A stretch of 64,000 nt of DNA from Candidatus Moraniibacteriota bacterium (lineage in GTDB: Bacteria; Patescibacteriota; Minisyncoccia; Moranbacterales; UBA1568): the NCBI GenBank assembly GCA_016182385.1, contig JACPGV010000002.1:189190-253189 (forward strand). Direction: 5' to 3'. The notes under the pieces are model-generated. The model saw only the letters and a list, made by a program, of their open reading frames with translations. It searched no databases and was not told the origin of the DNA. The stretch's first letter is position 1, and each line of letters starts with the position of its first letter. Of the stretch, positions 5,928-19,509 are shown piece by piece. The position numbers and the translations under genes were made by a program.

Positions 5928-5993
5928 ACCTGACGCATACCAAATAGTTGGCATGCTCCGAGAAGAAAAGAGGGTGCGCTCGGCAGGAATCTC
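5928..5993 (-). repeat. About 65-bp partial duplicate of the tRNA-Arg(CCG) 3' end (last ~19 nt) plus its ~45-bp downstream flank.
   Basis: 5928-5993 is nearly identical to 6084-6148, which contains the true tRNA 3' end. The shared sequence includes GATTCCTGCCGAGCGCACC. Confidence 0.7.
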
Positions 5994-6128
5994 CCTCGAC
6001 TAAACTTTTGTCGTCACAAAAGTTTGTCTGGGCACCGTCTCGCGGTTTCGTATGCTTGCGAAACAACGCTCCGACGTCCGATTCCTGACGCATACCAAGC
6101 AGTTGGTATACTCCGAAAAGAAAAGAGG

Positions 6129-6201
6129 GTGCGCTCGGCAGGAATCGGACCTGCGGCCTTCTGGACCGGAACCAGACGCTCTATCCACTGAGCTACAAGC
6201 G
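6129..6201 (-). tRNA. tRNA-Arg (anticodon CCG).
   Basis: Manual cloverleaf fold. Acceptor GCGCTTG/CGAGCGC, D-arm GCTCAGTGGATAGAGC, anticodon stem TCTGG/CCAGA with loop TTCCGGT, T-arm GCAGG-TCCGATT-CCTGC. No encoded CCA. Confidence 0.8.
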
Positions 6202-6273
6202 CGTTTATTGTTTGAGTGAAAAAACAACGCAATCAAATCATAACGGAAAATACAAGCCATCGCAATTTTTCTT

Positions 6274-6323
6274 GAGAAAAAAAACGCCCCGCGAAATTCG
6301 ATGAGACGAATTGATTCGCGGGG
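6274..6323 (-). terminator. Rho-independent terminator downstream of the Nudix gene.
   Basis: On the minus strand: CCCCGCGAA...TTCGCGGGG hairpin followed by an 8-T run. Confidence 0.55.
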
Positions 6324-6343
6324 CATTAAGTGTGGCTAGTTTT

Positions 6344-6919
6344 TTAGCCGCCGGGGTGTATCCCCGCAAAGGACTTGGAGAGGGCATCGTTGGCGACATC
6401 AAGAGCCATGCGATGCAGGCCGACGAGGAGTTTTTCTTTTGTTTCACCTCGTGGCGATAGTTGAGAACCAAGAATGGTTTCAGCTTCTTCCGGAGTTGGT
6501 GTACCGCCGTTTTTGACTCCGGTCACGACCACGACGAAATGCTTTTCCGTCGATTTGTCGGGGGAGTTGAAAAACGGGCCAAAGACACGGCAGTTGCCTT
6601 CTTCTCCGACGCAACCCGTTTCCTCGCGAAGTTCGCGAAGAGCCGCTGCCTGAGGTGTTTCGTCTTTCTTCTTTCCGCCAGCCGGTAAACAGAGGAGTAC
6701 CTGTTCCACGGCCTGCTTGTACTCGCGGATGAGAACGACTTGGTCATCCTCGGTCACCGGAACCACGAGAACAAACTCACCTCGTTTCCAGATGACTCGA
6801 TCGTCTTCGCGATTGTCGACGCGAACTCGCCAATGTTCGAGCCTGAAAAATCCTTCCATTCCCGAACAGGGCGCAGCGAACGCTACGGGCGTTTTGCCCA
6901 AGATTCCGACCTCCATCAT
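6344..6919 (-). CDS. Nudix hydrolase (ADP-ribose pyrophosphatase-like).
   Basis: Nudix box G(x5)E(x7)REUxEExGU present as PAGGKKKDETPQAAALRELREETG. AAGGAGGA SD upstream. Confidence 0.8.
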   Translation of the reverse strand: MMEVGILGKTPVAFAAPCSGMEGFFRLEHWRVRVDNREDDRVIWKRGEFVLVVPVTEDDQVVLIREYKQAVEQVLLCLPAGGKKKDETPQAAALRELREETGCVGEEGNCRVFGPFFNSPDKSTEKHFVVVVTGVKNGGTPTPEEAETILGSQLSPRGETKEKLLVGLHRMALDVANDALSKSFAGIHPGG

Positions 6920-6960
6920 TTCCTCCTTTTAAAGAGCATCAAGCGGAATGCTTGACTGTG

Positions 6961-6989
6961 TATTGTATCATAATTTAATGTTTAAGTCA
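6961..6989 (-). promoter_or_regulatory. Sigma70-like promoter for the Nudix gene: TTGACT, 17 nt, TACAAT.
   Basis: Reverse complement of 6961-6989 reads TTGACTtaaacattaaattatgaTACAAT. Located 40-70 nt upstream of the ATG at 6919. Confidence 0.45.
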
Positions 6990-7057
6990 AGCCTAAAAAA
7001 TTGACAAAAAAAGAAGGGTCGCAAGATTTCTCTCACAACCCTTATGAACAACTCTTA

Positions 7058-7366
7058 CTAGTCAGTGTAGACGCGATTTATGCTGCGGGTTCGGCCGCAG
7101 CAGAGGCAAAGAGCGAGGCAGTCATGTGTGATGTTATCTTCCTGTCTGCCACATTTCTTGCACCGTTTTGTTTGTACTTCTTTGTATCGCGCCATCGGTG
7201 TACCGCAACAGCGAGTAGACCAGTAGGTCTTTTTGCCGAAGACTCCTGGATTTGGCTCGCGCCGCTCGTTGCCGGTGTTTTCCCACTCCGGCCCGTGGTT
7301 CAGGCACATGCCGTGGCGACACTGACTGTGTGTGCACTTCTGGCCTGCAAGATTGCTATGGTCCAT
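7058..7366 (-). CDS. Small (102 aa) Cys/His-rich protein, putative metal-binding. Function unknown.
   Basis: 11 Cys, including a CC pair and CxxC (CKKCGRQ). Strong SD AAAGGAGA 6 nt upstream. Preferred over the overlapping plus-strand ORF 7001..7495. Confidence 0.5.
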   Translation of the reverse strand: MDHSNLAGQKCTHSQCRHGMCLNHGPEWENTGNERREPNPGVFGKKTYWSTRCCGTPMARYKEVQTKRCKKCGRQEDNITHDCLALCLCCGRTRSINRVYTD

Positions 7367-7588
7367 AGCAGTTCTCCTTTCTGGCTACCTGTTTTCTTAG
7401 GTACCAACTACATATATACACAAAATCGCAGAAAGGTCAATAGTTTTGCGGTGAAAGTAAAAAAATCAGCTCGTTCTTGCTTATTGAAGAAGTAAATTTT
7501 TTTAATGGGGTTTGAAGTTAAAATCTATTTGACCCGGCTGCTCGGTACAGGCAGATACCGGTTTTGCAGATGTTGAAGTGCTGAATTG

Positions 7589-7661
7589 TGCGCTCGGCAG
7601 GAATCGAACCTACGACCCTCTGGACCGCAACCAGATGCTCTATCCACTGAGCTACGAGCGC
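7589..7661 (-). tRNA. tRNA-Arg (anticodon GCG), paralog of the CCG copy.
   Basis: Manual fold. Acceptor GCGCTCG/CGAGCGC, same D-arm as the CCG copy, anticodon loop TTGCGGT, T-arm GTAGG-TTCGATT-CCTGC. Confidence 0.75.
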
Positions 7662-7705
7662 AAAATAAAAAATGTTTTCTAATGTGGATTACGAAGAAAA
7701 CATCT

Positions 7706-8212
7706 TTAAATATGCAGTAATTTTTCCAAAGTGTCAATGAGCCCGGGACTATGCTCTTCTTCCGGTATAAATTGCGAGAGGACATCGCGTAATTCGTTGT
7801 TATCAATAGTGGGAACAGGGATATGCGCGTGGGAAAAAAGTTTTCCTTCAGTATGAAGACTGAGAATATTTTGGAATGGCGGTTCGGTATAAATAAAGAA
7901 TGATTGCACGGATTCGAAAGAGTAGAGCTCATTGCCGGCGACGACGCCTTTTGGGGTAACAGAAAAACGTATGATTCGTGGTTCTCGATACAAAGAAAGA
8001 TAGCCGATAATACCGATGAGAATAAAAGTAATGGCCATTAAGGGGCTATTTGTGTAGAGTGCCCAGACAACAATAAGAACGAGGAGTACGGTGACGATGA
8101 CGCGTGATCGCGGGCCGAGCTCAAGGGGCTCGTGTTCTGGGGCCTCCCATTGAAGTAAAATAGTGTTGGGGGAAAGAGGGGAGGTGCTTTGTTGTTCAAA
8201 AGAATCTTGCAT
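7706..8212 (-). CDS. Hypothetical membrane protein with two TM helices, possibly a bacterial PH-like domain.
   Basis: 168 aa. Hydrophobic segments VIVTVLLVLIVVWALY and AITFILIGIIGYLSLY followed by a soluble domain. Confidence 0.45.
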   Translation of the reverse strand: MQDSFEQQSTSPLSPNTILLQWEAPEHEPLELGPRSRVIVTVLLVLIVVWALYTNSPLMAITFILIGIIGYLSLYREPRIIRFSVTPKGVVAGNELYSFESVQSFFIYTEPPFQNILSLHTEGKLFSHAHIPVPTIDNNELRDVLSQFIPEEEHSPGLIDTLEKLLHI

Positions 8213-8333
8213 AAAGAGTTGATGTTTTTATCCTTGTTCACTATAGCACATTTTTTCTTTTGGTGATTTGATTGGATGGAAAAATCTTGCTAGAGTTGTT
8301 GGAGGGGAATTTGTTTTGTTTGTCAAAAAATAG

Positions 8334-8423
8334 GGAGGAGTGGCCGAGTGGTTGAAGGCAACAGTCTTGAAAACTGTCGTACCCGAAAGGGTATCGTGAG
8401 TTCGAATCTCACCTCCTCCGCCA
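8334..8423 (+). tRNA. tRNA-Ser (anticodon TGA), type II with long variable arm and encoded CCA.
   Basis: GGAGGAG acceptor, GCC/GGC D-stem, anticodon loop CTTGAAA, variable arm CGTACCCGAAAGGGTATC, T-arm GTGAG-TTCGAAT-CTCAC, CTCCTCC-G-CCA. Confidence 0.85.
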
Positions 8424-8496
8424 AGTTTTACATTCAGCGAAATTGAAAGATGTTGCCTCGGCGCAAAGCGCCTCGGCATGGTATTTTTCCGCAATT

Positions 8497-8660
8497 TTAA
8501 AGGCATTTTTGAAATCCAAAAACAAAGTGCGGTCGGCAATGCGGAAGTTCGAACCAATCTTTTTGAGAAAATCCCGAAAGGATTCGGGAATTTTTGGCGG
8601 GAACGCGTTTGTGTCGGCGCGAAGCTCGGTGAGGGAATGGTGTTTTAACCACAGTGTCTT
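8497..8660 (+). repeat. Dispersed repeat family R1, copy 1. It contains imperfect palindromes and T-arm-like GTTCGAAC motifs, and its 3' end carries the 33-bp islet direct repeat.
   Basis: 8524-8620 aligns with the reverse complement of 15158-15290. Core GGATTCGGGAATTtTTGGCGGGAAcGCgTTTGTGTCGGCGC is about 90% identical. ORFs 8409..8672(-) and 8443..8700(+) lie within the repeat. Confidence 0.6.
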
Positions 8661-8735: not shown

Positions 8736-9347
8736 ATGTCATTTGAAGGTTATAAAAAAGATTCCAGGGACATACATTTGAATCCTAAAGAAGGCAAAGA
8801 ACAGGCCGGGACTCTGGAATCATTGTTGGAAAAGTACAAGGACCAAAGAGTATTGGTTCTTGCGCCACCGAGTGTTGGAAAAAGTACCATCTTGCAACAT
8901 ATCAAAGATGGCGTTGACTTAGATGTAGTATTTGATGATATGCCAGAAGAGTTTAAAAGACACGTTTTACATCATGAGTGGCCATTCATGTTTGTTGATG
9001 GTGATAGGAAGGCCATAAAATACACTGAAAAGGAATTTGACCCAAATAATATTGAGCACCAAGATTATTTAAGAGAGACGACTGAATTGCTGACGGATTA
9101 TGTTCAAAGCAAGATGAATATCGAAGCGGGACATCCAGGCTTTGGAAGTACTCTTGTAGATTCTGATGTGGTGATATATTTAAAAATTTCTGAAGAGGAG
9201 CTTGAAAAAAGGATTGAGTCTCGTAATAAGAATACTCACAGACTCGTACAGATTGAAAGAGTTAAGGCGATAAAGAAAAATTTAGAAGTAGATTTAGTTA
9301 GGTTTAAATCTGAAGGTGGAGTAGTGGAAGAGATAACTATTGATTAA
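8736..9347 (+). CDS. P-loop NTPase / putative nucleotide or polynucleotide kinase (203 aa).
   Basis: Walker A-like LAPPSVGKST. AT-rich gene inside the putative islet. Immediately followed by a HAD phosphatase gene. Confidence 0.55.
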   Translation: MSFEGYKKDSRDIHLNPKEGKEQAGTLESLLEKYKDQRVLVLAPPSVGKSTILQHIKDGVDLDVVFDDMPEEFKRHVLHHEWPFMFVDGDRKAIKYTEKEFDPNNIEHQDYLRETTELLTDYVQSKMNIEAGHPGFGSTLVDSDVVIYLKISEEELEKRIESRNKNTHRLVQIERVKAIKKNLEVDLVRFKSEGGVVEEITID

Positions 9348-13455: not shown

Positions 13456-13477
13456 TTTCTAAGCCTCGCTTTTATGC

Positions 13478-13500
13478 AGATTTTTGAGACACTAGCGTGT
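13478..13500 (+). terminator. Possible hairpin terminator after the 1178-aa ORF.
   Basis: AGACAC-tagc-GTGTCT stem-loop followed by TATTTCCTT. A second hairpin ATGAGACA...TGTCTCAT lies at 13515-13542. Confidence 0.3.
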
Positions 13501-13675
13501 CTTATTTCCTTAATATGAGACATAGCCTGTATTGTGTCTCATTTGTCTCAAAAGCCTGACCCGGACACCTCAATTTGCTATACTCCAAGTACCTCCAAGA
13601 AACCCCTCAACAGCCCTATACTTCAAAGTTCTAGACCGATGTAGCCCGCAATTTTTCGAAAAGGGTTTCAGAACC

Positions 13676-13720
13676 AAAAATATGGTCGGCGTGAAGCTCG
13701 GTGAGGGAATGTGGTTTGAG
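13676..13720 (+). repeat. Partial R1 repeat copy carrying the second 33-bp direct repeat, the putative right boundary of the islet.
   Basis: 13685-13717 GTCGGCGtGAAGCTCGGTGAGGGAATGtgGTTT versus 8613-8646 GTCGGCGcGAAGCTCGGTGAGGGAATGgtGTTTT. Confidence 0.55.
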
Positions 13721-15026: not shown

Positions 15027-15117
15027 GGAAAGGTGGCCGAGCTGGCTGAAGGCACCACACTGCTAACGTGGCAGGGGATAAAACCCCTCGAGGGTTCGAA
15101 TCCCTCCCTTTCCGCCA
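15027..15117 (+). tRNA. tRNA-Ser (anticodon GCT), type II with encoded CCA.
   Basis: GGAAAGG acceptor, GCC/GGC D-stem, anticodon stem CCACA/CGTGG with loop CTGCTAA, long variable arm AGGGGATAAAACCCCTC, T-arm GAGGG-TTCGAAT-CCCTC, CCTTTCC-G-CCA. Confidence 0.8.
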
Positions 15118-15300
15118 AAATTGAAAATCGGAATCGGAAGCCGAAATGGGGTCGGCGCGAAGCGCCGACACAAAAGCATTCCCGCCAAGAATTCCCGAAT
15201 CCAAAAGGTTTTTCCACGCTCCGCGTGGCTCAAAAAAGACGGTTCGATCCTTAATTTGAAAGTTCGAACCGACTTTTTTGAACAAATGAAGTTTTGCTTC
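15112..15300 (-). repeat. tRNA-Ser(GCT) 3'-flank repeat (att-like, 15112-15149) followed by an inverted copy of repeat family R1 (15158-15290).
   Basis: 15112-15149 recurs at 19472-19509 (33/38 identical). 15158-15290 is the reverse complement of 8524-8620. Internal imperfect palindrome AAAAAGTCGGTTCGAAC...GATCGAACCGTCTTTTTT. Confidence 0.6.
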
Positions 15301-15587
15301 ATTTGTTCCCTCGTTTGCCAATTCCATATTGTATTTCAAAAACTTTTCCGTAAGTTCGAACCGATTATTCGCTTTTTGCTCAAAAGCCGATAATTTCTCT
15401 TTGAGAAGCTGTTTTTCGTTCATTAACTTATTTTTCATATCTCGATATTCTTCAAGCGACAAGGCGTTTTCGAGATAAGCGCTATGATGTAAGCTCCTAT
15501 CTGGACAAGGAGGGCTTTGAGAAAATGAATAGTAAGCTGAAGTAGTCTGAAATTGGAGAGAAGTCCTCTTTATGCTAAAATGGAACT

Positions 15588-17426
15588 ATGTTTGAAAAAC
15601 ACCCCCTCCACATCAAAAACCCAGAACTGCAGAAATCTGCCGATGTTCAGCATGCCGTTGTTCGTGACCAGCGCCACACCGGCGAGAAAATTCCAAATGA
15701 TCCTAAAGATCGTATTGAGGCATATACTGACCGATTGGAAAATATCTTTCTCAACCCTGATAGCCGAGTACGAGAGCGCAATATTGACCTTCTTCGTCCC
15801 AAGATTTACGACAGCCTCATCATCAAGCGAGGGAATTTTCCCGATTCCTACTTTGAACTCCAAAAAAGAGTGGCCAGAGAACAGGGTCACGGTGACATTG
15901 AAATTTCTCAAGAGATGCGAGAGCAGATGATTGATACGGCTATCGCTGATCAAAGGCACTCTCTTGATGCTTGGATTGACTACCTGTCATCCGAAGATGC
16001 TGTCTATCCAGCCTGGTTTAAGTACTACGCGTGGAATCAAATTACCAAGCTTTCCCAGTTTGATAAAGAGCGCGGCGAATTCAAGAAACGCACCGAAAGC
16101 ACGGTCGCTCCTTTTCCAGATATCTACCGCGAACCACTAGCGCAAATGGCCGACCTGTACGAGCGAGTCAAGCAAGATAATAAGGATCCAGAAGCTAGAG
16201 CTGAATTTGATAAAAAATTCCCTAATCTCTACGCTGAACTCATTGTTAAATCCTTAGAGGCCGGAGTGGGGGGTGGGGAAACCATAGAGGGGGCCTGGGT
16301 AAAGTTTGAACAAGGGGAGGAAGGCGCCGCGGAGAAACTTTTTCAGTCGCTTGATGGCCGAGGGACGGGCTGGTGTACCGCTGGGTATTCAACCGCCCAA
16401 ACCCAAATTGAATCCGGAGATTTCTATGTCTATTACACGAATGATAAAGACGGAAACCCAATACAACCAAGACTCGCCATTCGCATGAATGGTGATACTC
16501 AAATCGGAGAAGTAAGAGGAGTGCTCCCGCAACAAAATGTAGAGCCTTTGATGCAAGAAGTATTAGAGGAAAAACTCCAAGCTTTTGGGAAAGAGGCTGA
16601 TGCGTATCATAAGAGGAGTAGCGATATGAAAATGCTGACCGTTCTGGAAAACAAAAAAAAGCAGGGAATACCTTTTGCTAAAGAAGATCTCACTTTCCTA
16701 TACGAAATCAATTCCACCATTGAAGGCTTTGGCTATCAGGAAGATCCACGCATCGCTGAATTACGGGCTGATCGCAATACCGAAAGAGACATGTTAGTAA
16801 TCTTTGATTGTACCCAGGCAGATATTGCCAGAACCCCAAGTGAAATTCGGCCTACAACCAAAGCCTATGTGGGTCAATTAGAGCCAGGCATCTTCCAAAA
16901 ACTCCCAGCTACTCTAGAACACGTCTATACTGCTTTCCCAGAAGGAAAAGTACGAAGGATAGAATCCAAAGTGGGAGGCAAATCTGCTGGTACTCTTCAA
17001 GAAGAATTGGAAGCTGCTCAAATCAATATTGGGGGCTATGCTGAGAGTATGCTCAAAAACAAAAAGGAATTTATTGCTACTCCAGAATTAGAAGAGATGA
17101 CCCTGATTCGTCTTACGGTAGCTGACCTTGGTTTTAAGTCCTCTGCTACTACTGATCAAATTTACAAACGAGCTGAAGAATTAGGACTTGAACTCTGTCC
17201 AAGCGATGTCGGTCCCACGCTCCGTTTACAATACCAAAATCAACCTCTTGGAGAATGGCTGTATATAGGAATGAAACAAATTGCTGACTCTGACGGCAAT
17301 CCCGGCGTTTTCATGCTGGCGCGCGACGGTGGCGGTTTGTGGTTGGACAGCAGTTGGGCGAGGCCTAGCAGCGGGTGGAATCCGGACGGCGGGTTCGTGT
17401 TCCGTCTCCGCAAATCTGAATCTTAG
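15588..17426 (+). CDS. DGR target (variable) protein, 612 aa. C-terminal ~45 aa is encoded by the VR (C-type-lectin/FGE-like ligand-binding fold inferred). N-terminal ~560 aa of unknown function.
   Basis: 3' end 17283-17410 is an adenine-mismatched copy of the TR. C-terminal motif ...GWNPDGGFVFRLR is typical of DGR variable proteins. Confidence 0.8.
   Translation: MFEKHPLHIKNPELQKSADVQHAVVRDQRHTGEKIPNDPKDRIEAYTDRLENIFLNPDSRVRERNIDLLRPKIYDSLIIKRGNFPDSYFELQKRVAREQGHGDIEISQEMREQMIDTAIADQRHSLDAWIDYLSSEDAVYPAWFKYYAWNQITKLSQFDKERGEFKKRTESTVAPFPDIYREPLAQMADLYERVKQDNKDPEARAEFDKKFPNLYAELIVKSLEAGVGGGETIEGAWVKFEQGEEGAAEKLFQSLDGRGTGWCTAGYSTAQTQIESGDFYVYYTNDKDGNPIQPRLAIRMNGDTQIGEVRGVLPQQNVEPLMQEVLEEKLQAFGKEADAYHKRSSDMKMLTVLENKKKQGIPFAKEDLTFLYEINSTIEGFGYQEDPRIAELRADRNTERDMLVIFDCTQADIARTPSEIRPTTKAYVGQLEPGIFQKLPATLEHVYTAFPEGKVRRIESKVGGKSAGTLQEELEAAQINIGGYAESMLKNKKEFIATPELEEMTLIRLTVADLGFKSSATTDQIYKRAEELGLELCPSDVGPTLRLQYQNQPLGEWLYIGMKQIADSDGNPGVFMLARDGGGLWLDSSWARPSSGWNPDGGFVFRLRKSES
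17283..17410 (+). repeat. DGR variable repeat (VR).
   Basis: 128 bp, about 83% identical to the TR. All ~22 mismatches fall at TR adenines. Shared 3' GC-rich IMH-like end CGTGTTCCGTCTCCG. Confidence 0.85.
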
Positions 17427-17769
17427 AAACTTTGTTTCTTTGTCTTAATTTTTCTTTTGACCCTTGGACTCTTTGATACTTTGGACTTTAGTCTTTTAGC
17501 GGCGTAGCCGCTTGGCGCGATTTTTTTGCTATACTGATTGCAAGCTGGTTACATTGAACGGTTACGGCTTTTCGAGACCAGCCCGGCTCATGTGGATTGA
17601 GAGCGTGGACGGCTACGGTTTTCCACGGAGGATACGCATGCAGTCAACAAAAAAGAAACACTTGGTGCGACACACTGGCTGATTTTCGATCAGAGTTAAA
17701 ATACAGCACGACCTCTGGCATTTCATGCGCTTAGGTCGGCAGTGATCTAGATGGCGTGCCGCACAAAAA

Positions 17770-17897
17770 GCTGACTCTGACGGCAATCCCAACGTTTTCA
17801 AGCTGGAACGCAACGATGACGGTTTGTGGTTGAACAACAATTGGGCGAAGCCTAACAACGAGTGGAATCCGAACAACAAGTTCGTGTTCCGTCTCCG
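17770..17897 (+). repeat. DGR template repeat (TR).
   Basis: Contains 10 AAC (Asn) codons in the target frame. The corresponding VR codons are GGC/GAC/AGC/CGC etc. Confidence 0.85.
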
Positions 17898-17917
17898 AAA
17901 CTGCTTTCTTTCCGCAG

Positions 17918-18241
17918 CTATGTGTTGCGGTTTTTCTTTTCAGGGTTGTCGAGATTCTTCTTCCAGCCACCGAACATGCGGCCAATCTCTTCAAGTTTTG
18001 AGGAAACATTCTCACAGTGGGCGTTTGAAATGAGCTTGCCTTCCCAGGCAACTGAAACGAGAAACTTCAGCGTATCAAGAAGGAGGATACATTCAGAAAT
18101 CTTTTCAGCCTTTTTCTCTTTTTCGGTAAAGTAGGCAGCGTAGGAAAGTTCGAGTAAATCAAGAAACCTATTTTCAATGCGAGAGCCTATCGTATATCTC
18201 GCCCCTTTAGAAATATGCGGAACAATATTCACCCAAATCAA
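17918..18241 (-). CDS. Avd-like accessory variability determinant (four-helix-bundle, 23S rRNA IVS protein family). Antisense to TR and RT.
   Basis: 107 aa. C-terminal ...KFLVSVAWEGKLISNAHCENVSSKLEEIGRMFGGWKKNL resembles the IVS/Avd consensus (...EIGKML.GLIK.L). Basic. Confidence 0.5.
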   Translation of the reverse strand: MIWVNIVPHISKGARYTIGSRIENRFLDLLELSYAAYFTEKEKKAEKISECILLLDTLKFLVSVAWEGKLISNAHCENVSSKLEEIGRMFGGWKKNLDNPEKKNRNT

Positions 18242-18267
18242 ATAGCCCTCTTTGATACGAGCGAGGA

Positions 18268-19326
18268 TTGTGGCCTTCGTATTTCCGAGCGAAGCTCGGG
18301 GGGGGGGGTGAAAACAGGTGCAGTCATATCTACCATGATATCATTTCTGTGGATAACTTGCTCTCGGCCTGGCGCGAGTTTCTCAAAGATAAACGCCGTC
18401 GTAAGGATATTGAACGGTTTGCGCTTCACCTGACCGATAATGTCCTTTCGCTTCACAAGGATCTTACCGACAAAACCTATAAGCATGGCTCGTATCGAGC
18501 TTTTCGGATTAACGACCCGAAGCCACGAGATATTCATAAGGCATCGGTTCGAGACCGACTTCTGCACCATGCGATCTATCGGGTCTTGTATCCCTACTTC
18601 GATCCCAAGTTTATTTTCGACTCCTATTCCTGCCGCCGTGCTAAAGGCACACACCGGGCTATCAATCGCTTTCGGGACTATGCTCGCAAGGTTTCACAAA
18701 ATCATACACGCACCGCTTGGGTTCTCAAGTGTGACATTAGGAAGTTTTTTGCTAACATCGATCACAAAATTCTGGAAGATATCCTGAGGCACCGCATCGG
18801 AGATGGAGAGGTAGTATCGCTTCTGGGCGAAGTAGTAGGAAGCTTTCATACGAAAGACAATCCCGCTGTCGGGCTGCCCCTTGGCAACCTTACGAGCCAG
18901 CTTCTGGTGAACATCTATATGAATGAGTTCGATCACTTTGTGAAGCGGGAATTGAAAGCCGCCTACTACATTAGGTATGCAGATGACTTCGTAATCTTGC
19001 ATGAAGACAAGGAGTATTTGGAAAAGCTTTTGCCCAAGATAGCAGCGTATCTGGCAGCCCGGCTTAGGCTGTCGCTCCACCCGAACAAGGTATTCATAAA
19101 GACGATTGCCTCGGGCGTTGATTTCTTAGGCTGGGTGCATTTTCCGTATCATCGGGTACCAAGAACCTCCACCAAAAAAAGAATGTTCAGAAACCTCAAT
19201 CAGAAGCAGACGGAAGCCACCGTGGCCTCATATCTCGGCCTCCTGAGCCATGGGAACACCTATGGCCTAGCTGAGAAGGTAAAGAGAAGTCTTCCCGAAA
19301 ATTCGAGCGAAAAGGCTACCTTTTGA
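18268..19326 (+). CDS. DGR reverse transcriptase.
   Basis: RT domains with YADD (IRYADDFVIL) and DGR-specific motif LPLGNLTSQ, which replaces QGxxxSP. About 350 aa, no maturase/endonuclease domain. Start uncertain: TTG at 18268 or GTG at 18349. Confidence 0.85.
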   Translation: MWPSYFRAKLGGGGENRCSHIYHDIISVDNLLSAWREFLKDKRRRKDIERFALHLTDNVLSLHKDLTDKTYKHGSYRAFRINDPKPRDIHKASVRDRLLHHAIYRVLYPYFDPKFIFDSYSCRRAKGTHRAINRFRDYARKVSQNHTRTAWVLKCDIRKFFANIDHKILEDILRHRIGDGEVVSLLGEVVGSFHTKDNPAVGLPLGNLTSQLLVNIYMNEFDHFVKRELKAAYYIRYADDFVILHEDKEYLEKLLPKIAAYLAARLRLSLHPNKVFIKTIASGVDFLGWVHFPYHRVPRTSTKKRMFRNLNQKQTEATVASYLGLLSHGNTYGLAEKVKRSLPENSSEKATF

Positions 19327-19471
19327 GACAGTCCCAAAAACGCCCATAACCGTCCCATTAGTCTCATTTGCCAAAAAGCCAAGCCTAGACTCAGGTACCT
19401 CAGTAAAACCCGAGAAACCATGCTAAAATATCCCTTAATAGCCCTATCCCTGGGTACTTAACTCAGGTGGC

Positions 19472-19509
19472 CCGCCAAAATTGGAAATCGGAATCAGAAG
19501 TCGAGATGA
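19472..19509 (+). repeat. Distal direct repeat of the tRNA-Ser(GCT) 3' end plus flank (attR-like).
   Basis: 33/38 identity with 15112-15149, including CCGCCA (acceptor end, discriminator, CCA). Confidence 0.55.

Follow-up and report, generated by a model that had tools for sequence, protein, structure and literature searches.

The 4.36-kb segment that follows the tRNA-Ser(GCT) gene of a Candidatus Moraniibacteriota bacterium is probably a decayed, non-autonomous island resembling a cis-mobilizable element (CIME), seated at a tRNA-Ser(GCT) hotspot and carrying a diversity-generating retroelement (DGR) as its cargo. It lies in a stretch of 64,000 nucleotides of contig JACPGV010000002.1 (assembly GCA_016182385.1, forward-strand positions 189,190 to 253,189), referred to below as the window and numbered from its first letter; L numbers denote the loci compared with it. 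The reading is carried by a direct repeat at the two ends of the segment, a recombinase relic adjoining the tRNA gene, the association of related recombinases with tRNA-Ser genes, a slot whose contents vary, and related DGR units with the same kind of ends in unrelated contexts. An earlier account made from the letters alone, the sequence-only reading, had proposed an integrase-less, tRNA-targeted DGR island. As the description of a recurring arrangement, in view of this tRNA-Ser slot, its different cargo at locus L007 and the similarly bracketed DGR units of loci L028, L040 and L041, the proposal is a fair one, but a relic of the recombinase is present.

The direct repeat and the recombinase relic

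The tRNA-Ser(GCT) gene (15027-15117, plus strand; ARAGORN, Rfam tRNA 51.8 bits) is intact, has its CCA encoded, and would be the integration target on the attL side; the island thus has an intact tRNA gene at one end, as expected of a tRNA-integrated element. A repeat search recovered a pair at 15112-15148 and 19472-19508, in direct orientation, 4360 nt apart and identical without gaps at 33/37 positions. The 38-nt version of the sequence-only reading, which starts with the last 6 nt of the tRNA gene and recurs at 19472-19509, was reproduced exactly (33/38, as the added base mismatches). No third copy of the 37-mer with three or fewer mismatches exists in the window, and 100 shuffles gave 0 matches. 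The tRNA contributes only the first 6 nt, CCGCCA. In copy 1 (15112-15149, plus strand) these are followed by 31-32 nt which, on the minus strand, are the final codons of a recombinase relic (..PISASDSDFQFWR). In copy 2 (19472-19509, plus strand) they are followed by a 31-nt relic of a second recombinase 3' end (reverse complement ISTSDSDFQFWRA), and similarity ends after the 38-mer. The two copies have diverged by 11%, with 4 mismatches within the 31 nt. More diverged copies, not noted in the sequence-only reading, were also located: one at 13645-13720 and the other, which is of a different variant, behind tRNA-Ser(TGA) at 8424-8575.

The minus strand of 15118-15591 is an open frame (...SLEEYRDMKNKL...KKVGSNFQIKDRTVFFEPRGAWKNLLDSGILGGNAFVSALRADPISASDSDFQFWR) that reads on, antisense, into the tRNA. 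Homology to large serine recombinases (LSRs) is strong to about 15475 and has decayed by about 15518, and the feature at 15118-15518 (minus strand), here called C-type, is a truncated LSR gene, shortened by about 75%. A functional integrase is absent from the island, in which only the last ~120-133 codons remain, and no resolvase, recombinase or Zn-ribbon sequence is found anywhere in the 64-kb window. A protein search with 104 residues gave 231 matches at 65-95% identity from Moraniibacteriota, Pacebacteria, Azambacteria, Nomurabacteria and other Patescibacteria; among the 120 matches listed, all have at most 182 amino acids, many are on short contigs, and one (P0096) contains Zn_ribbon_recom. 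The relic is 92% identical to the recombinase of L001 over 446 nt and 95.7% identical over 116 amino acids, and its C-terminal coiled-coil region is homologous to the rest of the family (42% to the intact protein of L091). Because the catalytic domains are missing here and present in homologues, the window copy is a pseudogene fragment of a member of this LSR family. The sequence-only reading, in stating that no integrase is present, had overlooked this truncated gene.

Since the minus strand from 15118 to about 15500 corresponds to an LSR C-terminus, the 38-mer consists of CCGCCA and the last 10-11 codons of an LSR gene. It had been taken for a duplicated tRNA 3' end, an interpretation that does not hold: the recombinase gene's 3' coding end accounts for 31 of its 37 nt, and the same sequence occurs at tRNA-Ser genes that have no DGR. 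Equally, it is hardly credible that the repeat arose by chance, is a short dispersed one, or serves as tRNA trailer or terminator with no mobile element behind it. The AT-rich, intergenic-looking composition and the presence of only two good copies in the window would suit such an explanation, but zero matches are expected by chance, the repeat lies in frame in a recombinase open reading frame (ORF) with protein-level conservation in more than 200 sequences, and it is found at several tRNA-Ser isoacceptors together with recombinase domains.

Inside the relic a perfect palindrome, GTCGGCGC-GAA-GCGCCGAC (15151-15169), codes for SALRAD and is a candidate recombination or structural site; copy 2 lacks it. 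At 8613 another relic changes strand exactly at the palindrome. The stretch 15162-15202, which is 93% complementary to 8580-8620, is probably the inverted "R1" repeat that the sequence-only reading had noted within the island.

The right arm of the island, termed X (19327-19471, plus strand), shows weak but significant homology to the right arm of the neighbouring island (13456-13644) and closes with a T-arm-like hairpin (19449-19467) and CCGCCA. Its acceptor strand mismatches this tRNA, and the part common to copy 2 and the tRNA is CCGCCA only. ARAGORN detects no tRNA fragment in arm X, even when relaxed (-ps80), and its interpretation as a tRNA pseudogene was rejected on that ground. Arm X has no match in other loci; an 11-mer in L027 that resembles it looks like chance.

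A recombinase family at tRNA-Ser genes

Full-length members of the LSR family have about 500 amino acids. In L001, L089, L090 and L094, ORFs with Resolvase, Recombinase and Zn-ribbon domains lie directly upstream of the C-terminal fragment; the LSR genes of these four loci are split into 2-3 ORFs, and some other genes are also fragmented in the same assemblies. The recombinase of L091 likewise has LSR N-terminal domains, and a phage-like contig of IMG/VR with endolysin and tail genes encodes an intact homologue of 504 amino acids (63% identical) that matches phrog_95 'integrase'. The 38-mer itself has no match in viral contigs. L001, L090 and L094 share 96-97% identity in their N-terminal domains, which suggests that the family has spread very recently.

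A tRNA-Ser gene adjoins 9/9 recombinase genes or relics whose neighbouring tRNA was identified: GCT and TGA in the window, CGA in L001 and L095, GGA in L002, GCT in L090, and TGA in L089, L093 and L094. Among 57 homologues that include the C-terminus, 24 continue into antisense tRNA and about a dozen into CVLNEV/CLLDKV, a conserved sequence that is not tRNA but the antisense of ATACATTCGAACTTTGT..ACA. The 38-mer sequence is found beside tRNA-Ser genes in many Patescibacteria without a DGR. Three loci show the far end of such elements: a pseudo-tRNA arm (ATACATTCGAACTTTGT..ACACCGCC) followed by CCGC(C) and then by unrelated DNA, in direct orientation and 4.1-4.3 kb from the tRNA (L001 4984-5016, L002 5360-5392, L095 6170-6202). 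The canonical order is therefore tRNA-Ser, CCGCCA, the 38-mer with a recombinase facing the tRNA, an HTH gene, 2-3 kb of cargo, the pseudo-tRNA arm, CCGCC and host DNA, the HTH_3 gene being divergent from the recombinase in L001, L089, L090, L094 and L095. From this layout we infer that the crossover takes place at or near CCGCCA.

The canonical far ends of L001, L002 and L095 have no 38-mer after CCGCC, and copy 2 in the window is nearer to the recombinase end of L001 (35/37) than to copy 1 (33/37). For these two reasons the two 38-mers probably stem from separate integrations, and their description in the sequence-only reading as scars of one insertion is probably mistaken. A single integration that produced both as a duplicated att core, in the classical Campbell manner, with later divergence, is very improbable. 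Their direct orientation, the position of one copy at the tRNA end, and a size near that of the canonical islands (4.1-4.3 kb) would agree with it. It is contradicted by the far ends and by the foreign affinity of copy 2, and also by the nature of the 38-mer, which is coding sequence of the element and not of the target, and by the adjoining relic, which is 92% identical to L001 over 446 nt although the two copies differ by 11%.

Several side observations concern the same recombinase loci. In five of them the gene lies between inverted repeats of ~120-160 bp (L001 7624-7783 vs 9174-9293; L089 8817-8963; L090 8758-8904; L093 3795-3920; L094 6552-6715). Directly upstream of the recombinase ATG, in inverted orientation, the 3' end of the same gene is found a second time with an internal deletion, accompanied by the pseudo-tRNA arm and CCGCCA, and the deletion junction (..LANE|EPRGAW..) is identical in 5/5 loci that have it. 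This inverted copy could be an invertible switch or promoter module. Short contigs in an 'attP' configuration (recombinase 3' end joined to pseudo-tRNA arm, e.g. P0001) were considered as proof of excised circles and rejected as firm evidence, as the ~120-nt inverted repeat could yield assembly chimeras. At two unrelated loci, ORFs with a LAGLIDADG domain lie directly 5' of tRNA-Ser genes that have LSR islands or relics (L007 5408-6418, L094 8324-9022).

The tRNA-Ser(GCT) slot in the nearest genome

One scan of genome contigs yielded a single relative with the same locus, L007 of Ca. Moraniibacteriota MAG_644, which is the nearest genome found (89% amino acid identity in the 463-aa flanking gene). 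Synteny is kept from an RRM protein through DUF4383 and tRNA-Ser(GCT) to a 468-aa gene. In place of the DGR, 3.3 kb of cargo of restriction-modification type fill the slot, with two HNH genes and a truncated C5-methylase, bracketed by short 'D-type' recombinase relics (alignment scores 51 and 46 against a background of 16.7 +/- 4.1). This D-type variant is the one that follows tRNA-Ser(TGA) in the window. The same slot with a different cargo marks the tRNA-Ser(GCT) locus as a hotspot. In the comparison with relatives that the sequence-only reading had suggested, this relative lacks the DGR and its slot is filled by other cargo; no unoccupied site was found. Contigs of the same organism in Logan, retrieved by exact-protein look-ups with both flanking genes, either hold the DGR junction or break at the tRNA/38-mer and are uninformative.

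The DGR module

The sequence-only reading had placed an entire DGR between the repeat copies, and each of its components (target, variable repeat, template repeat, Avd and reverse transcriptase) was confirmed. The module conserved in relatives (15569-19326, plus strand) is self-contained and 3.76 kb long, with target, structured RNA, template repeat, avd and reverse transcriptase; nucleotide homology to about 70 related loci extends from 15569 to 19295. The target gene (15588-17426, plus strand) encodes 612 amino acids, with homologues of 40-70% identity in related DGR loci and no Pfam match. The variable repeat (VR; 17276-17413, plus strand) lies within the 3' end of the target ORF, and the template repeat (TR; 17763-17900, plus strand) contains 44 A, of which 23 are mismatched in VR. 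Over the 138 nt of TR and VR, all 23 mismatches (23/23) fall on TR adenines and 0 on the 94 non-A positions. The accessory gene avd (17918-18241, minus strand) matches PF22296 (E = 2.6e-13), and the reverse transcriptase (RT; 18268-19326, plus strand, start codon uncertain) matches PF00078 (E = 5.6e-23) and is 64-80% identical to 80 metagenomic RTs, all of which lie in TR/avd/target cassettes. With a DGR-type RT, adenine-only TR/VR mismatches, Avd and a VR at the 3' end of the target, the cassette between the repeat copies is a bona fide DGR.

A run of 11 G (18298-18308) separates the avd start from the conserved N-terminus of RT; it could be a slippage-prone tract or reflect assembly uncertainty. 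The RT frame has no nearby in-frame ATG and opens at TTG 18268. In the closest DGR relatives (L011, L012, L019, L073 and others) a 613-aa target is divergent from TR-avd-RT, and some 2 kb separate VR and TR; in the window, L058 and L040 the target is co-oriented and the VR lies beside the RNA domain. This difference in orientation among relatives implies that the target gene was flipped within the cassette during evolution.

Related DGR loci

No match to the 38-mer, the C-type relic or arm X was found in 80 related DGR loci, so that the search for the 38-mer at other DGRs, also suggested by the sequence-only reading, had a negative outcome. The genes flanking the island in the window occur at none of the related loci, and the closest relatives of the DGR lie between housekeeping genes such as mnmA, yceG, obg and efp. 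Given that relatives lack these three features, sit elsewhere and mostly have no flanking repeat, the DGR as such is not a tRNA-targeting element.

A subclade formed by L028, L040 and L041 behaves differently. The DGR units of these loci are 78-87% identical at the nucleotide level and their homology ends at CCGCCA motifs, but their 7-kb flanks have no mutual blastn or tblastx similarity and represent three unrelated contexts. The units are bounded on one side by TTGGCGG and a pseudo-tRNA arm, and on the other by a recombinase relic, TGGCGG and tRNA-Ser or tRNA fragments. In L041 and L042, ~100 nt of recombinase relic come after the RT stop, and then TGCGG and an intact tRNA-Ser(CGA) in reverse complement. 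At the opposite end, ~60 nt before the target ATG, a displaced piece of tRNA (GGTTCGAATCCCTCCCTCACCGCCA) precedes a second relic copy. In L028 the cassette is surrounded by 68-nt direct repeats (98.5% identity), each with relic, TGGCGG and pseudo-tRNA sequence. The left junction of L040 is clean, the host terminator passing straight into the TTGGCGG-pseudo-tRNA arm, and its right side has a D-type relic and an array of tRNA-Ser fragments. The same DGR unit, bounded by CCGCCA in three unrelated contexts, points to integrase-less units with att-like ends that have evidently moved. The window DGR is an independent instance and not a copy of this unit, for its orientation relative to the flanks is opposite and its flanks are other relic variants.

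Three further related loci bear on this association. The contig of L035 ends in the same relic as the L041/L028 subclade, and the DGRs of L029 and L043 adjoin an LSR gene that looks full-length. As a side observation, the fragment array of L040 (11040-11450) comprises two displaced tRNA-Ser 3' fragments (TGGCGGAGAGGGTGGGG.. and TGCGGAGAGGGTGGGATTC..) and a canonical pseudo-tRNA arm, at most 400 nt downstream of the DGR. It is a textbook accretion array, and the contig ends 93 nt past it.

History and present state of the island

The agents behind these arrangements would be integrative elements of Patescibacteria that encode an LSR of ~500 amino acids and insert at the CCGCCA end of tRNA-Ser genes. 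As the recombinase gene is oriented towards the tRNA, the codons at its end (the 38-mer) would come to lie directly after CCGCCA and form attL; at the far end, the pseudo-tRNA arm borne by the element and the CCGCCA after it would form attR, and integration at CCGCCA would regenerate the tRNA end. Through repeated integrations and deletions, recombinase 3' ends and pseudo-tRNA arms would then accumulate in arrays. The left 38-mer in the window belongs to the truncated LSR gene. The right 38-mer, just outside the right arm of the island, is probably derived from another LSR copy and is best understood as what is left of an older element already beside the tRNA when a later one entered. The history suggested is one of serial integration, or accretion, followed by deletion, in which the DGR would be cargo and not the agent of mobility; the island would have lost its integration gene and kept att-like ends. 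Both ends do retain CCGCCA and 31 nt in direct orientation (87-89% identity), their att function being putative, and related autonomous elements with the same ends exist (L001, L089, L090 and L094, with far ends in L001, L002 and L095).

The island is probably fixed at present, as its repeat copies are 11% diverged, copy 2 is cut after the 38-mer and the window contains no LSR. The alternative, that it is still active though non-autonomous, with 38-mers that are functional attL/attR-type sites and an LSR, encoded elsewhere in the genome or by an incoming element, that excises and reintegrates a 4.36-kb DGR circle in trans, is in essence the mobile DGR island of the sequence-only reading; it is unlikely but has several points in its favour. 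The CCGCCA and 31 nt are kept in direct orientation at both copies, the frame of the relic is open and 95.7% identical to L001 at the amino acid level, the flanking repeats of L028 are nearly identical and the DGR unit occurs in three contexts bounded at CCGCCA, and the N-terminal domains of L001, L090 and L094 indicate a very recent spread of the family. Activity is opposed by the 4 mismatches in 31 nt between the copies, by the end of copy 2 right after the 38-mer, without the palindrome, by the lack of an LSR in the 64-kb window, by the failure to find a junction or empty-site contig, and by an arm X that is unlike the canonical arm of C-type recombinases.

Other observations weigh against the interpretation as a decayed island at a hotspot. 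For this organism neither an empty site nor a circular junction nor an intact LSR came to light, the Logan contigs breaking at the tRNA/38-mer. Arm X is not the canonical pseudo-tRNA arm that is paired with C-type recombinases, and it yields no tRNA fragment with ARAGORN; the left relic and the right arm may therefore be derived from different elements with deletions between them, which would imply a multi-step history. The 'attP' contigs, as possible chimeras, lend no firm help. Most related DGRs are not in such slots: a flanking direct repeat longer than 13 nt is missing in 29/33 loci with complete cassette and flanks. Relatives with the DGR elsewhere and without repeats, which the sequence-only reading had named as evidence against a mobile island, are thus real for the majority, but not for the L028/L040/L041 subclade. 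The orientation of the window DGR, opposite to that of this subclade, is a further difficulty. GC content, a clear sign of foreign origin in the neighbouring island, was rejected as such a sign for the DGR island, whose value (0.41-0.50) is no different from its flanks. Finally, characterised serine integrases leave very short repeats and usually insert within genes (PMC5704250).

The neighbouring island at tRNA-Ser(TGA)

A second island lies upstream in the window, from 8424 to about 13720, and is absent from L007. Its genes encode a dNK-like kinase, a HAD hydrolase and a 1178-aa NUDIX/zeta-toxin-like protein, and its GC content (0.30-0.35) contrasts with that of its flanks (~0.45). It is bounded on the left by a D-type relic and on the right by an X-like arm, CCCGCA and an A-type relic. 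The left boundary, or sister locus (8334-8645, plus strand), consists of tRNA-Ser(TGA) (8334-8423), the D-type relic (8424-8575, minus strand) and a mosaic relic (8580-8645) in which an inverted C-type piece (8580-8612) is fused at the palindrome, GTCGGCGC-GAA-GC, to an A-type piece (8613-8645) that is 91% identical to 13685-13717. The mosaic looks as if it arose by recombination at the palindrome, a possible recombinase site. The right end (13536-13720, plus strand) has the X-like arm, CCCGCA and the 'A-type' recombinase relic (reverse complement ..ELHADHIFGSETLFEKLRA).

Between the right arms of the two islands (13536-13644 and 19361-19471) there is a weak but significant resemblance. A common 21-nt motif lies 109-111 nt from CCGCCA in both, and the intervening 88 nt score above all 647 real-sequence controls and about 3 SD over the shuffle mean. 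A long conserved 'right end' common to both islands was set aside, since this motif and stretch support it only modestly and it was not found in other loci.

Farther upstream, a 63-nt direct repeat (5929-5991 and 6084-6146; 92% identity, 155 nt apart) consists of the final 19 nt of tRNA-Arg(CCG) and 44 nt downstream, another tRNA 3'-end duplication scar. The block of tRNA-Arg(CCG), tRNA-Arg(GCG) and tRNA-Ser(TGA) (6128-8423) is inverted relative to L007 (3273-4305), and the window has an extra ~1.4 kb between the two tRNA-Arg genes, with a NUDIX gene and a 164-aa ORF.

A structured RNA upstream of the template repeat

Between the target gene and TR lies a conserved structured RNA of ~220 nt (17543-17764, plus strand), delimited by alignment and RNAalifold, which ends at the first base of TR and is preceded by a -10-like box TGCTATACT (17527-17535, plus strand) conserved as TG-N-TATACT. 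It is conserved in at least 60 related loci. RNAalifold predicts 7 helices from a 32-sequence alignment, with 55 pairs of which 39 have compensatory changes; 97.2% of the cells are paired, vs ~40% with slid partners, and 0/500 shuffles reach any of the measures. The RNA has no Rfam match, tRNAs alone reaching threshold in the region, and no description of such an RNA was found in the literature searched. In this clade of Patescibacteria DGRs it probably serves as the 5' domain of the template RNA, and as a covarying RNA fused to the 5' side of TR it is a candidate recruiter of RT-Avd.

Comparison with known systems

Islands linked to tRNA genes, accretion, CIMEs and DGRs on integrative and conjugative elements (ICEs) or phages are all known (PMC4383910, PMC5704250, PMC4010831). 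Like the tRNA islands collected by Islander (PMC4383910), the island described here has an intact tRNA at one end, an adjoining integrase gene, here a truncated one, a far-end repeat and a cargo that varies between relatives, and its counterpart in a related genome is different (the 3.3 kb of methylase and HNH genes in L007). Islander islands have tyrosine integrases and a sizeable duplicated piece of the tRNA 3' end; here the enzyme is an LSR, CCGCCA alone is common with the tRNA, and the remainder of the repeat is recombinase coding sequence of a second element. In general tRNA ends are targets of tyrosine integrases (PMC5704250, PMC4383910), whereas serine-recombinase integrative and mobilizable elements insert within genes and not at tRNA 3' ends (PMC5704250).

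Accretion, decayed integrases and partial tRNAs have been described for tycheposon islands (10.1101/2020.12.28.424599) and for CIMEs (PMC5704250). The tycheposons of Prochlorococcus (10.1101/2020.12.28.424599) are similarly tRNA-proximal, with successive integrations that push older elements inward, scattered fragmented integrases and partial tRNAs, and small cargo modules. They mostly have tyrosine recombinases and their own replication modules, in contrast to the minimal ~2-kb LSR and HTH module, the 2-4 kb of cargo and the tRNA-Ser specificity seen here. The present island differs from streptococcal CIMEs and their accretion (PMC5704250) in having no conjugation context, a Patescibacteria host, a DGR cargo and a mobilisation that is putative.

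Large serine integrases of phages and ICEs (phiC31, Bxb1 and the TnpX/TndX type) have the order Resolvase, Recombinase, Zn ribbon and coiled coil in about 500 amino acids. The family described here is alike in domain order and size, and one homologue lies on a phage-like contig. It differs in that the tRNA-Ser 3' end is apparently targeted without disruption, recombination itself being putative, in that the 3' end of the gene forms half of the attachment region, and in that inverted repeats flank the gene in five loci. Its use of tRNA 3' ends as targets makes the family unusual among serine integrases. Nothing on serine integrases at tRNA-Ser in the candidate phyla radiation (CPR) was found in the literature searched, and within that literature a serine-integrase family that targets tRNA-Ser 3' ends across Patescibacteria seems not to have been described previously; the same seems true of CPR DGRs that ride in integrase-less derivatives of LSR elements.

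As to the cargo, the DGRs of Bordetella phage BPP-1 and of a Legionella ICE, as mentioned in PMC4010831 with reference to Arambula 2013, and those of the Patescibacteria DGR clade 2 of Roux et al. (PMC8144416) have the same RT, Avd and TR/VR with adenine mutagenesis. A DGR on a tRNA-integrated mobile element is, on that mention of the Legionella ICE, already known. DGRs are strongly enriched in CPR/Patescibacteria, and the present case hints at how they spread there. It may be proposed, tentatively, that an undescribed and recently spreading Patescibacteria LSR family integrates at the CCGCCA of all tRNA-Ser isoacceptors and leaves them undisrupted, and that DGRs of the CPR clade pass between genomes as integrase-less, satellite- or CIME-like cargo mobilised by it in trans; the island in the window would then be one such unit, and the first concrete vehicle for the spread of DGRs in CPR bacteria. 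Wu et al. (PMC5758913) found 'essentially no information' on an association of CPR DGRs with mobile elements, and for Roux et al. (PMC8144416) an origin of these DGRs on mobile elements is a hypothesis only. A CPR DGR in a tRNA-Ser hotspot, together with a related unit cut at CCGCCA in three contexts, makes the question of DGR mobility directly testable. The DGR cassette evolves as a unit (PMC5758913) and, as in the phage and ICE cases, is borne by DNA that moves horizontally; CPR DGRs have been described as cellular (PMC5758913); here the carrier appears to be an LSR island whose integrase is dead.

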